Positions 42,388 through 47,625 of a stretch of DNA of 64,000 nucleotides are shown here, one piece after another. Both the position numbers and the translations under genes were made by a program. Source of the DNA: Verrucomicrobiota bacterium. GTDB taxonomy: Bacteria; Verrucomicrobiota; Verrucomicrobiia; Limisphaerales; UBA11358. The stretch is taken from assembly GCA_050012035.1 (NCBI GenBank), contig JBEKHY010000012.1, positions 11,110 through 75,109 of the forward strand, given 5' to 3'. Below the pieces are notes generated by a model. It worked only from the letters and a program-made list of their open reading frames with translations. It was not told the DNA's origin and searched no databases. Position 1 is the first letter of the stretch; every line of letters starts with the position of its first letter.

Positions 42388-42500
42388 TTTTTCGTACGGC
42401 CCCGGCTTGACGCCGCCGTCTGTCGCTGCGACCTTCTTTTCGCTTGGCGCAAAACGCGGCAGCGTCAGCGGCAGGCCCGTCCTCCGTAGCACTGCGGAGG

Positions 42501-45500
42501 GTGGACAACCTGTTCGCTGACATTGCGAAAGCTCCCGCCGTGCAATCCCTTGCCCGGCGACTGGAGGATGGCGGAGTGTTTACTTGCGCCGGCGTTTGCC
42601 AGGCAGCGCAGCCGTTTTTTGCCGTTCTCCTTCAAAATATTTTCTCGGACCAGCCACTCATCCTCATCACGCCGGATTTGAAAACGCAGGAAAATTTCCA
42701 CCAGGACATCGAAACGTGGCTCGATATGAGTCGAGTATCGGAAAAAACAGCAAGCGCGAACGCCGATTTCAGCTCTCGTCTCTCGACTCTCGACCTTCGA
42801 CCGTTGTTTTATCCCGCCTGGGAAATTTTGCCGCACGAAGGCAAGCTCCCGCACGCCGACACCATCAGCGACCGGTTGCAGACGCTGGTTTCACTCTCCA
42901 ACAATTCCGCACTCCGCACTCCGCACCCCATATTGGTCGTGACCAGCATCACCGCCCTTTTGCAGAAAACCTTCCTGCCCGGCGAAATCCAAAACCGCAC
43001 CCGCTCACTTCGCCGCGCCGATAAAGTAAATCCACTCGACCTGATTGAGTGGTTGGAGGAGCAGGGCTACGACCCTGAGGCGCAGGTCACGCAGAAGGGC
43101 GAAATCGCCTTGCGCGGTGGCATCCTGGACATTTGGCCGCTTATCAGTTCGTGGCCCGTGCGGCTCGAATTCTTCGGCGACGAACTGGAATCACTCCGCC
43201 ATTTCGATCCCCTCACGCAAATTTCGCGCGAGGAAATTTCGAGCGTCACAATTCCGCCCGCCGGCGAACTGGGAATGCTTATGAAGCGGCAGGTGACAGG
43301 TGACAAGTGGCATGACGAAGATTCTCCAGCCAGTAAGCCGAATCCTGTCACTCGTCACGTGTCACTGGCCACCCTCCTGGATTATCTGCCGCGCAAAGCC
43401 ATTTTCATTTTGTGCGAGCCTGAACAACTTTCCGTTCATGCCGACGAATACGCCCAACAAATTCCGGCAGACGACCCGTTTTTCATTTCGTGGCCGGATT
43501 TTCTCCTCGAATCAAACCGGCGCGGCTTCACCTCAATCGAGTTGACCGAAGAAATCGAAATCCGCGAAGCCAATCGCCAATCGGCAATCGGCAATCCGCA
43601 TTTCGCATCGCTCGACGCCTATCGTCCGCTGGCCGAACGCGCGCCGGAACTGCAAATTGCCGAGGCGCAGCGCCGCGAGTTCTTCCATCAACTCCATCGC
43701 TGGCTGCGACAGGGTTATGCGGTTCACGTCTTCTGCAACAACGACGGCGAACGGCAGCGGTTTGAAGAAATCTGGATGGAACTCGTGGGACAGGCTTCCA
43801 GCCTGTCTCCATCTGAAAAAGGCCCCCGGAAAGAAATTGGAGACAGGCGGGACGCCTGTCCTGCACTGCACCTCGGCATGCTTTCCCGCGGCTTCGTCTG
43901 CGAAGATGCCAAACTGGTCGTCGTCACCGACGCCGAGATTTTCGGGCGCTACAAAATCCAGCGGCCGCGCCGGCTCAAATCCCCACACGCGGCGGCGATG
44001 CGCTCGGCGCTGGAGATTGATTTCACAGATTTGGAGGAAGGTGACCTGGTCGTGCATCTGCAATACGGCATCGGCCGTTATCTCGGCCTGAAAAATCTGC
44101 CCGCCAGTTCGCGAACCGAAGCCCCAGATGCCAGACGCCAGACGCCAGATGCCGGCACGGAGTGCCTTGTCATCGAATACGCGCCCGCGAATCCCGGCGA
44201 TGAGCCGCCCAAACTTTACGTGCCGGTCAGCGAGGCGCACTTGGTCAGCAAATACGTTGGCGCGGGCAAGGCGCATCCGCCGTTGAACACGCTGGGCGGC
44301 ACGCGCTGGAAAAAGGCGAAGGCGCAGGCGGAACGCGCCGTGCGCGATGTCGCCGCCGAACTGCTGGCCATCCAGGCTGCGCGGGAAACACAGCCCGGCC
44401 ACGCCTTTGCGCCGGACGCGCCCTGGCAGCGCGAATTTGAGAGTGCGTTCATCTACGAGGAAACGCCCGACCAGTTCCGCTCCATCGTCGAAACCAAGGC
44501 CGATATGGAGCGCGCGAAACCGATGGACCGGCTGATTTGCGGCGACGCCGGCTTTGGCAAAACCGAGGTCGCCATCCGTGCCGCGTTCAAAGCGGTGATA
44601 GGCGGCAAACAAGTCGCCGTGCTCGTGCCGACAACGGTACTGGCCCAGCAACATTTCAACACGTTCCGCGAGCGCATGGCGGATTACCCCATGCGCATCG
44701 AATTGCTCTCACGCTTCCGCTCGCGCCGCCAGCAACAGCGTGTCGTGAAAGATTTGGCCAACGGCTCGGTGGACATTGTTATTGGCACGCACCGGCTGAT
44801 TCAAAACGACATCACCTTCAAGGAACTCGGTCTGGTCGTGATTGACGAGGAACAGCGGTTCGGCGTGTTACACAAGGAAAAATTCAAGCGCCTGCGCACA
44901 CTGGTGGACGTGCTCACGCTCAGCGCCACGCCGATTCCGCGCACGCTCTACCTTGCGCTCACCGGCGCGCGCGACATGAGCACCATCCAGACGCCGCCGC
45001 AGGATCGCTTGCCGGTCGAAACCATCGTCACCCAATTCGACGAGCGCGTCATTCGCGACGCCATTCAGCGTGAACTGAATCGCGGCGGACAGGTTTTCTT
45101 TTTGCACAACCGCGTGATGACCATTCAAACGATGGCCGACCGGTTGAAACGGTTGCAGCCGCACGCGCGCATCGTCGTCGGCCACGGCCAGATGGAATCG
45201 GACGAACTCGAAGAGGTCATGACGAAATTCGTCAATGGCGAGGCGGATGTTCTACTTTCCACGACCATTATCGAGAGCGGCCTCGACATTCCGAACGCGA
45301 ACACCATCATCATTGACCGCGCCGACCGTTTCGGTCTGAGCGATTTGTATCAACTGCGCGGGCGCGTCGGGCGTTACAAGCATCAGGCTTACGCTTACCT
45401 GATGTTGCCGCGCCATGTGAGCCTGCTCACCGATGTGCGCAAACGCATCAGCGCCATTCGGCAATACTCGACGCTCGGCAGCGGCTTCAAAATCGCCATG

Positions 45501-46082
45501 CGCGATCTGGAAATCCGCGGTGCCGGCAATCTGCTCGGCGCGGAACAAAGCGGCCACATCACCGCTATCGGCTTCGAGCTTTACTGCCAGTTACTCAAAC
45601 AAAGTATTGGCGCGCTGAAGGGTGAAAAAGTGAAACCGAGAGTGGACGTGGCAATGAAATTGGATTTCCTGAACCAGTCAGTCGTCAGTAGTCAGTCGTC
45701 CGTAGCTACTGACTACAAACCATTGACCGCTGACAAATCTGCTTCCCTTCCTCACCACTACATCACCGAACCGCAACACCGTATCGAAATCTACCGCAAA
45801 CTCGCACAGGCGACGGACAAGCTGGCGCTGGAAAATTTGCAAACGGAATTGCGCGACCGCTTCGGTCCGTTGCCGCCGCCAGTAGAGTTGCTCTTGCTCG
45901 TGGCCGAACTGAAAATTCTCGCCAGCGAAAAAGCCGTGACTGCCATTGAAGTGAAGGATGACAAGCTGATGCTCACGCGCTACGGCGATTTCCTCACGCT
46001 CGGTGGCAAATTCCCGCGACTCACGAAAAAGGACGCCAAGGCGCGGTTGAAGGAAATCAAGAAACTGCTGCTGGCGATCTAG
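42501..46082 (+). CDS. mfd: transcription-repair coupling factor Mfd
   Basis: ORF 42444..46082. GTG 42501 is the likely start, since the upstream codons are a REP hairpin. Motifs [36 protein letters not shown] and QLRGRVGR are present. The ORF carries several in-frame repeat cassettes. Confidence 0.9.
42775..42802. repeat. heptad array within mfd
   Basis: CTCGTCT CTCGACT CTCGACC TTCGACC. Confidence 0.8.
42906..42926. repeat. three perfect TCCGCAC heptads within mfd
   Basis: TCCGCAC TCCGCAC TCCGCAC. Confidence 0.85.
43291..43372. repeat. inverted heptad arms within mfd
   Basis: AGGTGAC AGGTGAC AAGTGGC (43291-43311), then 33 nt, then CTGTCAC TCGTCAC GTGTCAC TGGCCAC (43345-43372). Confidence 0.85.
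43551..43613. repeat. nine-unit heptad array within mfd
   Basis: GAAATCG AAATCCG CGAAGCC AATCGCC AATCGGC AATCGGC AATCCGC ATTTCGC ATCGCTC. Confidence 0.8.
43787..43861. repeat. two GC-rich REP-like hairpins within mfd
   Basis: GGGACAGGCT-TCC-AGCCTGTCTCC (43787-43810) and GGAGACAGGCG-GGA-CGCCTGTCC (43839-43861). Confidence 0.8.
44124..44151. repeat. heptad array within mfd
   Basis: CCAGATG CCAGACG CCAGACG CCAGATG. Confidence 0.85.
45680..45714. repeat. heptad array with internal inverted repeat, within mfd
   Basis: AGTCGTC AGTAGTC AGTCGTC CGTAGCT ACTGACT. GTAGTCAGT and ACTGACTAC are complementary. Confidence 0.8.
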
Positions 46083-46274
46083 CGCCGGAGGTGCGACAGA
46101 CAGTAGCCCACGGTGAAACCGTGGGAAAACGAGGGTTGGATTCAAGCCCCGGACGGGGCGAAAGAAAATTCCCATCATCGTCCGAATCTGCCGCCCCTGC
46201 CGGGGCTTTGCGCGTTTTGACGAACGAACCCACGGCTACCGCCGTGGGCTATTTTCTTCCGCGCCTCCGGCGCT
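46081..46274. mobile_element. MITE-like nested palindromic element (about 194 nt, no ORF)
   Basis: The terminal inverted repeats AGCGCCGGAGGTGCG (46081-46095) and CGCGCCTCCGGCGCT (46260-46274) match at 14 of 15 positions. The sub-terminal hairpins are CCCACGG-TGAAA-CCGTGGG and CCCACGGC-TACC-GCCGTGGG. The central inverted repeat is AAGCCCCGGACGGGGCG ... CGCCCCTGCCGGGGCTT. Confidence 0.55.
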
Positions 46275-46275
46275 G

Positions 46276-46350
46276 AAAATTGCACCTCAAACAAAATCGG
46301 ATGCCAGGGCGCGGCTGAAGGAAATCAAGAAACTGCTGCTGGCGATTTGA
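46276..46350 (+). repeat. orphan diverged duplicate of the last 25 codons of mfd
   Basis: It translates to [24 protein letters not shown], against [24 protein letters not shown] at 46008-46082. The last 51 nt are 46/51 identical. Confidence 0.85.
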
Positions 46351-46548
46351 GTTTGGGGAGCGCAGCCGCCCTCGGCTGCGGTTCGACGCGCCTTCGCGGC
46401 GAACACCGTGATGAGCCTGTGTCAACGACGAGGCGTCGTTGGCGGCACGCGAGGCGCGTGCGCTCCTGTTTCAAATCACGCCCGGTTGTAGATTGCCAGC
46501 AATGAAAAAGACTCGCGGATAAGCTGTCCTCGCTCCTATTTTCTCCGC

Positions 46549-47625
46549 GTGCATCTGGCCCATTTGCGACTCCGCGACTTCCGCAATTACGCGCGGTTGG
46601 ACGTGGATTTCGCGCCCGGCTTCCATCTGCTGCTCGGCGACAACGCGCAGGGCAAGACGAACATCCTCGAAGCGGTTTATCTCATGGCCACGCTGCGCTC
46701 GTTCCGTGGCGTCGGCGGCGCGCAGATAATCCGGCACGGACAGAAAGGCTACTTCGTCGGCGGCAATGTGGTGGGGCAGGGCGAGCACGAAATCAAAATT
46801 TACTGGTCGGCGCGCGAACGCAAACTGGCGCTGGATGGCCAGCCGGTGAGAAAACTTTCCGACTATCTCGGCGTGCTGCGCGCGGTGGTGTTTTGCACGG
46901 AGGATGTGCACCTGGTCAAGGGCACGGCCCGCGCACGCCGGCGGTTTTTGGATTTGCTGCTGGCACAGACGCAGCCCCGTTATCTGCCGCTGCTCCAGCG
47001 TTACCTGCGCGCCGTCCGCGCCCGCAACGCGTTGCTGAAACAACACGCCGTTGATGAAGCTGCACTCGACAGTTTCTCGCAGGAGCTGGTGAAGCTCGGC
47101 GATGAAATCGTCCGCGCCCGGCGTGAACTGGTGCCGAAATTTTCGCCGCTGGCGCGCCTCGCGTATCGCCGTGTTTCCAACGACGCCGAGGAATTGCGTA
47201 TTGAATATCAGCCAAGCGTGAAGAAGGATTTCGCCGTCGAACTCGCGCAATCCCGTGCCCGCGAGCGGACGTATCGCTTCACGCTCGTCGGGCCGCACCG
47301 TGACGATTTGCAATTGCTGCTCGACGAAAAATCCGCCGCGCAGTTCGGCAGCGAAGGCCAGAAACGCACCCTGGCCATCGCCTTGAAAATGGCGCAGGCG
47401 GAATATCTGACCGGCATCCATGGCAGTCCGCCGGTGCTGTTGATTGACGACGTGATGGGTGAGCTGGACGAGAAGCGGCGCGCCGGTTTCCTGCCGTTGC
47501 TGGAACAGGCGCGCAGAACCCACGGCCAGGTCTTCATGACTGCCACCGGGGAAAACTGGCCTTGCGAGCTGGGCAAAGATTTGCAGAAATGGGAAGTGAT
47601 AGCCGGAACTTTATTGAAACACTAA
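46549..47625 (+). CDS. recF: DNA replication and repair protein RecF
   Basis: GTG start. MHLAHLRLRDFRNY, Walker A GDNAQGKTNILEA, and C-terminal LLIDDVMGELDEKRR. Confidence 0.9.
   Translation: MHLAHLRLRDFRNYARLDVDFAPGFHLLLGDNAQGKTNILEAVYLMATLRSFRGVGGAQIIRHGQKGYFVGGNVVGQGEHEIKIYWSARERKLALDGQPVRKLSDYLGVLRAVVFCTEDVHLVKGTARARRRFLDLLLAQTQPRYLPLLQRYLRAVRARNALLKQHAVDEAALDSFSQELVKLGDEIVRARRELVPKFSPLARLAYRRVSNDAEELRIEYQPSVKKDFAVELAQSRARERTYRFTLVGPHRDDLQLLLDEKSAAQFGSEGQKRTLAIALKMAQAEYLTGIHGSPPVLLIDDVMGELDEKRRAGFLPLLEQARRTHGQVFMTATGENWPCELGKDLQKWEVIAGTLLKH

Follow-up and report, generated by a model that had tools for sequence, protein, structure and literature searches.

A palindromic non-coding repeat of 194 nucleotides (nt) separates two direct copies of the mfd 3' end in a Verrucomicrobiota bacterium (assembly GCA_050012035.1; here, G000), the genome under study, which is a 3.59 Mb draft in 57 contigs. 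We analyzed this locus within a stretch of 64,000 nt (the window; contig C12, positions 11110-75109) and in related genomes; the relatives compared with the locus are at the species level, none of them being more than 95% identical. The mfd gene, which encodes the transcription-repair coupling factor, is a 1212-amino-acid (aa) open reading frame (ORF) in the ORF list (42444..46082, forward strand) with Pfam matches to DEAD, Helicase_C, TRCF, UvrB_inter and CarD_TRCF_RID, and is separated by 466 nt from recF (46549..47625, forward strand; Pfam SMC_N, the RecF/RecN/SMC family). The upstream, functional copy of the mfd terminus (46006..46080, forward strand) is followed by the element (46081..46274) and by an orphan copy of the terminus on the same strand (46275..46350) that has its own TGA (46348-46350). 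The homology to mfd ends at 46080, the last base 5' of the element, and resumes at 46275, the first base 3' of it, so that both copies abut the element exactly. As a sequence-only reading of this DNA had proposed, the stop codon of mfd, TAG (46080-46082), is composite, with the T coming from the gene and the AG from the element; in-silico excision of the 194 nt restores ATC|TGA at the end of mfd, with the orphan directly after. The insert contains no real ORF and its neighbors are mfd, recF, a tRNA synthetase and a SIS/CBS protein, so that no mobility gene lies in or beside it.

The duplication is most clearly seen as a direct repeat of 56 nt (46023-46078 and 46291-46346, spacing 268) in which 50 of the 56 positions are identical (89%); in a BLAST comparison with the whole genome, the match has an E-value of 4e-15 and there is no third copy. 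The repeat extends to approximately 75 nt once two small indels are allowed. Thus, the architecture given in the sequence-only reading, an element between two copies of the mfd 3' end, stands, whereas the copies, described there as 75 nt long, have to be corrected to 56 nt ungapped and approximately 75 nt with indels. The first 18 nt of the orphan (46275-46292; GAAAATTGCACCTCAAAC) align to the orthologous mfd sequence GGAAAATTCCCGCGCCTCAC only via a 3-nt deletion and a 2-nt insertion, an alignment that is significant (p<0.01) against orthologues carrying GGAAAATT and weak against the remaining ones; the peptide 'KIAPQ' that had been read in frame in the orphan is, accordingly, not codon-for-codon homologous to the end of Mfd. 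Altogether, the pair differs at 7 of 57 positions, in addition to the indels. Three of these differences are substitutions specific to the orphan (the changes AAG>TCG and GAC>GAT), which also carries both indels, and the other four fall on sites that vary among species, so that comparison with orthologues cannot decide which copy is the donor and which the resident. The functional copy is nearer than the orphan to 30 of 35 orthologues, in agreement with the roles originally assigned to the two copies, and on the best reading, mfd remains intact through the upstream copy, and the downstream one is an untranslated orphan that is decaying in its native context. By codon position, the differences are distributed [2,2,3], too few for the test to have power. 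A diversity-generating retroelement was considered and rejected, since the differences are not adenine-specific (A is found in the orphan at one of the seven differing sites); no reverse-transcriptase ORF was found among the neighbors of the locus. A suspected third remnant of the mfd end at 46476-46497 was dropped as not significant (z about 2). An exact scan of metagenome contigs with a 28-mer of the orphan gave no matches, with near-identical records possibly lying outside the set.

The element itself is recognizable from its terminal inverted repeats, its central inverted repeat, its fold and its family of copies. The terminal arms are 33 nt long and 85% complementary, with the 14 matches in the outer 15 nt that had been reported for them; the central inverted repeat (46144..46208) is present as well, with arms of 22 nt (82% complementary) rather than the 17 nt given for it. 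The whole sequence folds into a single nested hairpin of -64 kcal/mol (z = -8.4; none of 200 shuffled sequences was as stable). Both terminal modules match the Acido-Lenti-1 motif of Rfam (RF01687), the left one on the reverse strand (46081..46125; cmscan score 40.9 bits against a gathering score of 37) and the right one on the forward strand (46229..46274; 54.6 bits). The suggestion that this is a multi-copy, non-coding repeat bounded by terminal inverted repeats proved correct: BLAST and nhmmer searches of the genome detected approximately 12 full and 5 partial copies of 192-204 nt, 70-80% identical, all of them intergenic, in which the hairpins and the termini (AGC.GC.GGAG ... CTCC.GC.GCT) are retained. 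The family is also present in many genomes of the genus. The genome contains 41 matches to RF01687, 21 of them above the cut-off, many arranged as inverted pairs approximately 150 nt apart. Of the remaining 16 copies, 11 of which are near full length, not one is flanked within 150 nt by direct repeats that exceed 10 nt, contrary to the idea that other copies, too, might be flanked by long duplications; neither was there a consistent short target-site duplication at 11 family copies, nor could an autonomous partner or a cognate REP-associated tyrosine transposase (RAYT) sharing the ends of the element be identified in this genome. The hairpin at 46229-46248 is followed by a run of T (CTATTTTCTT), a terminator-like match for mfd, which suggests that the element probably provides this gene with a terminator hairpin.

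In most of these respects, the element resembles miniature inverted-repeat transposable elements (MITEs) and the doublets of repetitive extragenic palindromes mobilized by RAYTs (REPIN/RAYT): it is a small non-coding sequence with a strong fold and terminal inverted repeats, it occurs in multiple intergenic copies, and its presence varies among related genomes. Like a REPIN, it is an inverted doublet of hairpin modules, the two inverted RF01687 matches; unlike a MITE, it lacks a short target-site duplication, and a flanking duplication of 75 nt is a feature of neither class. Weinberg et al. 2010 (PMC2864571) included Acido-Lenti-1, from Acidobacteria and Lentisphaerae, among the probable non-coding RNAs. 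The two element ends exceed the gathering threshold of this motif, but in the genome analyzed here the inverted pairs are the ends of a dispersed 192-204-nt repeat, not stand-alone small-RNA genes; RF01687 probably represents a module at the ends of a mobile repeat and not a gene for an RNA.

The comparison with an empty site that the sequence-only reading called for is available at the species level. Three genomes (G230, G232 and G312) represent some of the closest species, with 88-91% identity across the final 93 nt of mfd; in them, the mfd stop codon is followed by 79-107 nt and then by recF, with neither an orphan nor the repeat. The G000 sequence 3' of the orphan TGA is homologous to this native spacer (GTTTCAA...AAAAAGACTCGCGG...) and is split by a second, unrelated palindromic repeat bracketed by GTTT (about 46355..46466; recognized as an inverted repeat and from multi-genome matches to positions 750-867 of the query); the rest of the native intergenic region (46467..46548, forward strand) aligns to the spacers of the same three genomes (GTTTCAA...AAAAA(G)ACTCGCGG...). 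The orphan thus stands in the native context. The functional copy and the element are the added material, and the excess of the G000 spacer over those of the relatives is accounted for by the element (194), the copy (75) and the second repeat (about 115). The second repeat has the arms GGAGCGCAGCCGCC...GGCGCGTGCGCTCC and brackets that could be a 4-nt target duplication; copies of it are numerous in related genomes, it has no match in Rfam, and it is absent from the three empty-site genomes.

Duplications of the mfd end are by no means confined to this genome. In a genus sample of 120 other species, which yielded 110 genomes with a match (G000 included), approximately 20 (about 18%) carry a second, partial mfd end; across the order, the count is 6 of 187. 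All of these orphans reach the stop codon, and the distance from it to their 5' limits is anything between 32 and about 113 nt. They enclose unrelated inserts, without the 194-nt element. In a genome from another family of the order (G028), a duplication of 101 nt at 82% surrounds a YefM/YoeB cassette; in G018, the orphan, frameshifted and with its stop codon lost, lies beyond a gene for a 306-aa secreted protein; and in G017, a frameshifted orphan is found beside recF, with mfd 19 kb away. The inserts in G238, G259, G290, G229 and G295 comprise a pseudouridine-synthase/methyltransferase gene, an antitoxin-like ORF, a membrane protein, a large secreted protein and a glycosidase-like gene, and no recombinase or integrase is encoded in the mfd-end inserts that were read. 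The variable limits, the differing inserts and the lack of a recombinase in those read rule out a fixed att site and an integrase. In G022 and G004, it is instead the 5' end of recF with its upstream region that is duplicated, around inserts of 1.3 kb and 5.3 kb (1023-1115 and 2370-2462 of L014, on contig C2 of G022; 639-708 and 5949-6018 of L023, on contig C3 of G004), and G294 has a 34-nt remnant of the recF start about 0.7 kb 3' of the mfd stop. That relatives carry the duplication without the element was the result named in the sequence-only reading as speaking against mobility; taken together with the 16 other element copies that have no long flanking repeat, it indicates that the duplication is separate from the transposition of the element. 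The other half of that alternative, a local artefact of duplication plus hairpin, is not indicated, since the scar type is general in the genome.

This generality became apparent from a comparison of the genome with itself combined with a crude ORF map. At least 13 further duplications of gene 3' ends were detected, 45-185 nt long and 84-97% identical, each 0.2-5 kb downstream of the intact gene (for example, C3:139725/140343 at thiC, C7:72915/73673, C53:3310/3876, C6:29434/32189, C8:5131/7174, C11:174/3446, C36:6197/6905 and C2:3030/6323); their 5' limits are sharp, the homology stops at the stop codon, and the types of stop codon often differ. Several gene 5' ends are duplicated as well. The inserts at these scars include cassettes with ParE/Phd-type, ParE-like, Gp49-like and PIN proteins (Pfam), two-gene cassettes, genes for large secreted proteins and an ORF with an HUH motif, and the scar type is unusually frequent in this genome and its genus. 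The last of these inserts (C36:6282-6904) is flanked by the duplicated 3' end of a 594-aa gene and consists of a 163-aa ORF (C36:6323-6811), with the HUH-like motif MPDHLHLF, and perfect 24-nt inverted repeats (GGAGGGGCGAGTTCCACGAGCCCC) that differ from those of the 194-nt element; given that the ORF has no Pfam match, we do not call it a RAYT.

The inserts at two other loci are small palindromes. A gene for a DinG-like helicase (Helicase_C_2, DEAD_2) is followed at its 3' end by a tandem array (C2:74330-75255, period 258) in which four copies of the last 152 nt of the gene, each with a TGA, are separated by three copies of a 106-nt palindrome; the last gene-end copy is in the native context and all copies keep the ORF. 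The gene-end copies are 88-92% identical and the palindromes about 97%; an in-frame ATG from each palindrome opens a 61-aa ORF. The 49 residues encoded by this helicase end are 86-100% identical across the genus, mostly 92% or more, and an orphan helicase end is found in about 7% of the genus species. The DinG-like ORF (locus L065, C2:71551-74478) is about 970 aa long, approximately 250 more than in most relatives (about 720), and its residues 631-702 have a weak match to Pfam Y1_Tnp, the IS200-like transposase (25 bits, cut-off 23); an HUH domain may thus be embedded in the helicase, directly 5' of the palindrome array. At dnaG (C14:13929-14263), an orphan of about the first 110 nt of the gene (84.5% identical) precedes a perfect hairpin element of approximately 65 nt and the intact dnaG start, an arrangement that is the 5'-end counterpart of the mfd scar. 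With three loci at which hairpin repeats are exactly bracketed by duplications of gene termini, a chance landing of the element at the mfd junction becomes less likely.

The differences within the scar pairs carry information on the origin of the copies. In the clean gene-end pairs of the genome, they fall 19/9/55 on codon positions 1/2/3, with the stop codons kept and their types differing, which by our estimate is far from the expectation for decay in situ. The excess at third positions implies that the divergence accumulated largely under purifying selection, and hence that the copies are alleles of different lineages joined or refreshed by recombination, not products of decay in place. Between orphans of the helicase array, the corresponding counts are [3,1,9] and [2,1,11], and the array may reflect import of diverged alleles in series or mini-ORFs under selection; the frameshifts and stop codons in orphans of other genomes imply that orphans are not generally under selection.

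On balance, with the anatomy of the locus, the membership of the element in a dispersed family, the empty site, the independence of the duplication from the usual footprint of insertion and the recurrence of the scar with other cargo all being directly observed, we take the mfd locus to be an insertion with long target duplication whose sole cargo is a non-coding palindromic repeat. We infer that the element and the duplication arrived together, in a single host-mediated event in which either the ends of the element were joined to staggered target sites or a mfd end already bearing the element was imported with one illegitimate joint. The ancestral state would have been the one kept in the related species, mfd with its TGA, a spacer of about 80-100 nt and recF. 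The joints of the 194-nt Acido-Lenti-1 doublet lie at T|GA within the mfd stop codon for its left end and about 74 nt further upstream in mfd for its right end; with joints staggered in this way, the 74-75 nt between them would come to flank the element as two copies. The upstream one would have stayed with mfd and gained a new stop codon (T+AG) and the probable terminator hairpin from the element, and the downstream copy would have kept the old TGA and the native spacer, untranslated and decaying. The duplication would be the work of recombinase-free host recombination or repair, possibly with microhomology at the joints, not of an integrase or of the ordinary transposition of the element. 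The right terminus of the element, CTCCGGCGCT, resembles the sequence CTCGGCGG of mfd, just 5' of the duplicated segment, and this likeness is possibly such a microhomology. Ku is absent from the genome; ComEC and DprA are present, as they also are in most control genomes, and are not diagnostic of competence.

Several observations weigh against this reading. The two mfd copies are 11% diverged, so that the event must be old and its intermediates lost. When the last 3 kb of mfd were compared with 12 relatives in 150-nt windows, the nearest relative shifted by 1-4 points and no clearly foreign 3' tract was apparent, which leaves the version with an imported allele without direct support at mfd. 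The mechanism by which long target duplications are joined is unexplained in the literature, too, and one event cannot be proved against two. The main rival is, indeed, a history of two unrelated events, which we consider unlikely: a tandem duplication or a cargo-less remnant of the mfd end would have come first, through slippage or through import of the mfd allele of a relative with an illegitimate joint some 75 nt 5' of the resident stop codon, and the repeat would later have inserted in its normal manner in the stop codon (T|GA) at the junction. Without the element, ATC TGA does run directly into the orphan; the even spread of the few mfd differences over codon positions is what neutral decay of an orphan would produce; remnants of gene ends, variable in their limits, occur commonly across the genus; and members of the element family often lie 3-20 nt from stop codons, so that an independent later landing in that of mfd is possible. 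Such a history nonetheless requires a landing within 2 nt of the junction, a coincidence that becomes harder to accept with small palindromes exactly bracketed at the helicase and dnaG loci as well.

More speculative, and quite improbable in our estimation, is a one-ended mobilization from a false end, in which a single-strand HUH/Y1 transposase would cut not at the left end of the element but at a similar-looking site of mfd, 74 nt upstream, so that the mfd end and the element would move together and re-enter at the same position of a naive chromosome. This would account for the exact abutment, for the orphan in native context, for n gene-end copies alternating with n-1 palindromes, and for the identical junctions of the helicase array with third-position differences between gene ends beside palindromes approximately 97% identical; the likeness of the element terminus to mfd and the lack of short target duplications at the other copies, which is the expectation for Y1-type elements, also fit. 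However, no cognate Y1 transposase flanked by the element ends was identified in G000, the helicase array lacks such a resemblance in its junction motifs, and the same scar encloses toxin-antitoxin cassettes that have no hairpin ends. Cis-mobilizable elements (CIMEs) are att-flanked relics of integrative elements in gene 3' ends, for example, ICESt1/3 in fda of Streptococcus thermophilus. The mfd locus shares with them a small, enzyme-less element between direct copies of the end of an intact gene, the topology of attL, element and attR, and a mfd-recF interval that reaches 1.6-19 kb in several relatives could suggest that an integrative element targeting the mfd 3' end, and bringing a replacement terminus, has here lost its interior down to the repeat. 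The analogy, which had been drawn in the sequence-only reading, is very improbable: the scar has no fixed crossover core and its boundaries vary; the other element copies are unflanked; the inserts are unrelated to each other, and those read encode no integrase; in G022, G004 and G294, it is the 5' end of recF that is duplicated; the 13 or more other scarred genes, themselves unrelated, would each require an integrase; and the 194 nt make up an intact member of the element family and are no debris. Marginally less credible still is that the element's own transposase normally generates very long target duplications or that the arrangement is an artefact of the assembly. The transposon that offers a precedent for the former comes from Mycoplasma and is, presumably, IS1634. 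It is mentioned by Furuta et al. 2010 (PMC2853133) as having long direct repeats that are shorter than the duplications at restriction-modification (RM) insertions. A long target duplication as a normal property of the element family is rejected by the 16 unflanked copies, and an artefact, conceivable in a draft of 57 contigs, by the differences and indels between the copies, which exclude a collapsed or duplicated assembly path, and by similar decayed orphans in independent assemblies.

An insertion with long target duplication, the reading that we prefer, belongs to a kind of event known since 2000 (Nobusato et al. 2000; Furuta, Abe & Kobayashi 2010, PMC2853133). The criteria of the class in the latter study are a repeat longer than 30 bp, the absence of a mobility gene and an empty site in a relative, with a size limit on the insert (<20 kb) below which the 194 nt fall; its authors suggest that some feature shared by RM systems, for example double-strand breakage, plays a part in the insertion, and note amplification via the flanking repeats. 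As in the known cases, the mfd locus has a direct flanking repeat that exceeds 30 bp and has a single copy in a relative, the insert encodes neither transposase nor integrase, and the repeat length differs from case to case; the four-copy helicase array is comparable to the amplified repeats. The differences are that the mfd cargo is a 194-nt non-coding repeat and not a complex of RM or nuclease genes, that the copies are 89% rather than 95-100% identical, and that the duplicated segment is a gene terminus ending at the stop codon. With a non-coding cargo and no RM genes, the locus is a variant of the kind, outside the RM set. A different known process, homology-facilitated illegitimate recombination in natural transformation, was reportedly described in 2002 by de Vries and Wackernagel and by Prudhomme and colleagues. 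Its combination of a homologous anchor with a microhomology joint would leave just such an arrangement of imported gene end, cargo and truncated resident end, and it suits the third-position bias in most of the other pairs of the genome; at mfd, however, no foreign tract was detected, and ComEC plus DprA are no diagnostic sign.

More tentatively, and as something that may well turn out otherwise, long target duplications could be the natural footprint of a general, recombinase-free route of entry into conserved gene termini that is open to any DNA. Such a route would take in toxin-antitoxin cassettes, enzymes and even gene-less hairpin repeats. It would combine a homologous anchor in the conserved gene with an illegitimate or microhomology joint, the latter possibly set by a stable hairpin that ends the incoming strand, and the orphans would be fossils of resident or foreign alleles, which would explain their mostly synonymous differences and kept stop codons, including those of the three orphans in the helicase array. 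If so, the non-coding cargo at mfd would show that a nuclease encoded by the cargo is dispensable.

This mode of insertion has so far been attributed to the DNA-breaking activity of the RM genes that are carried, and its mechanism is still unexplained. The gene-less 194-nt cargo at mfd, the two additional loci with small palindromes and the many toxin-antitoxin cases indicate that the cargo need not encode anything and point to a recombination or repair pathway of the host. The locus also adds to the evidence that the Acido-Lenti-1 'small RNA' of Rfam is the terminal module of a mobile DNA repeat. The recurrence of the scar across the genus marks conserved gene ends as repeated landing pads and provides a data set from which the rules of the junctions could be derived.

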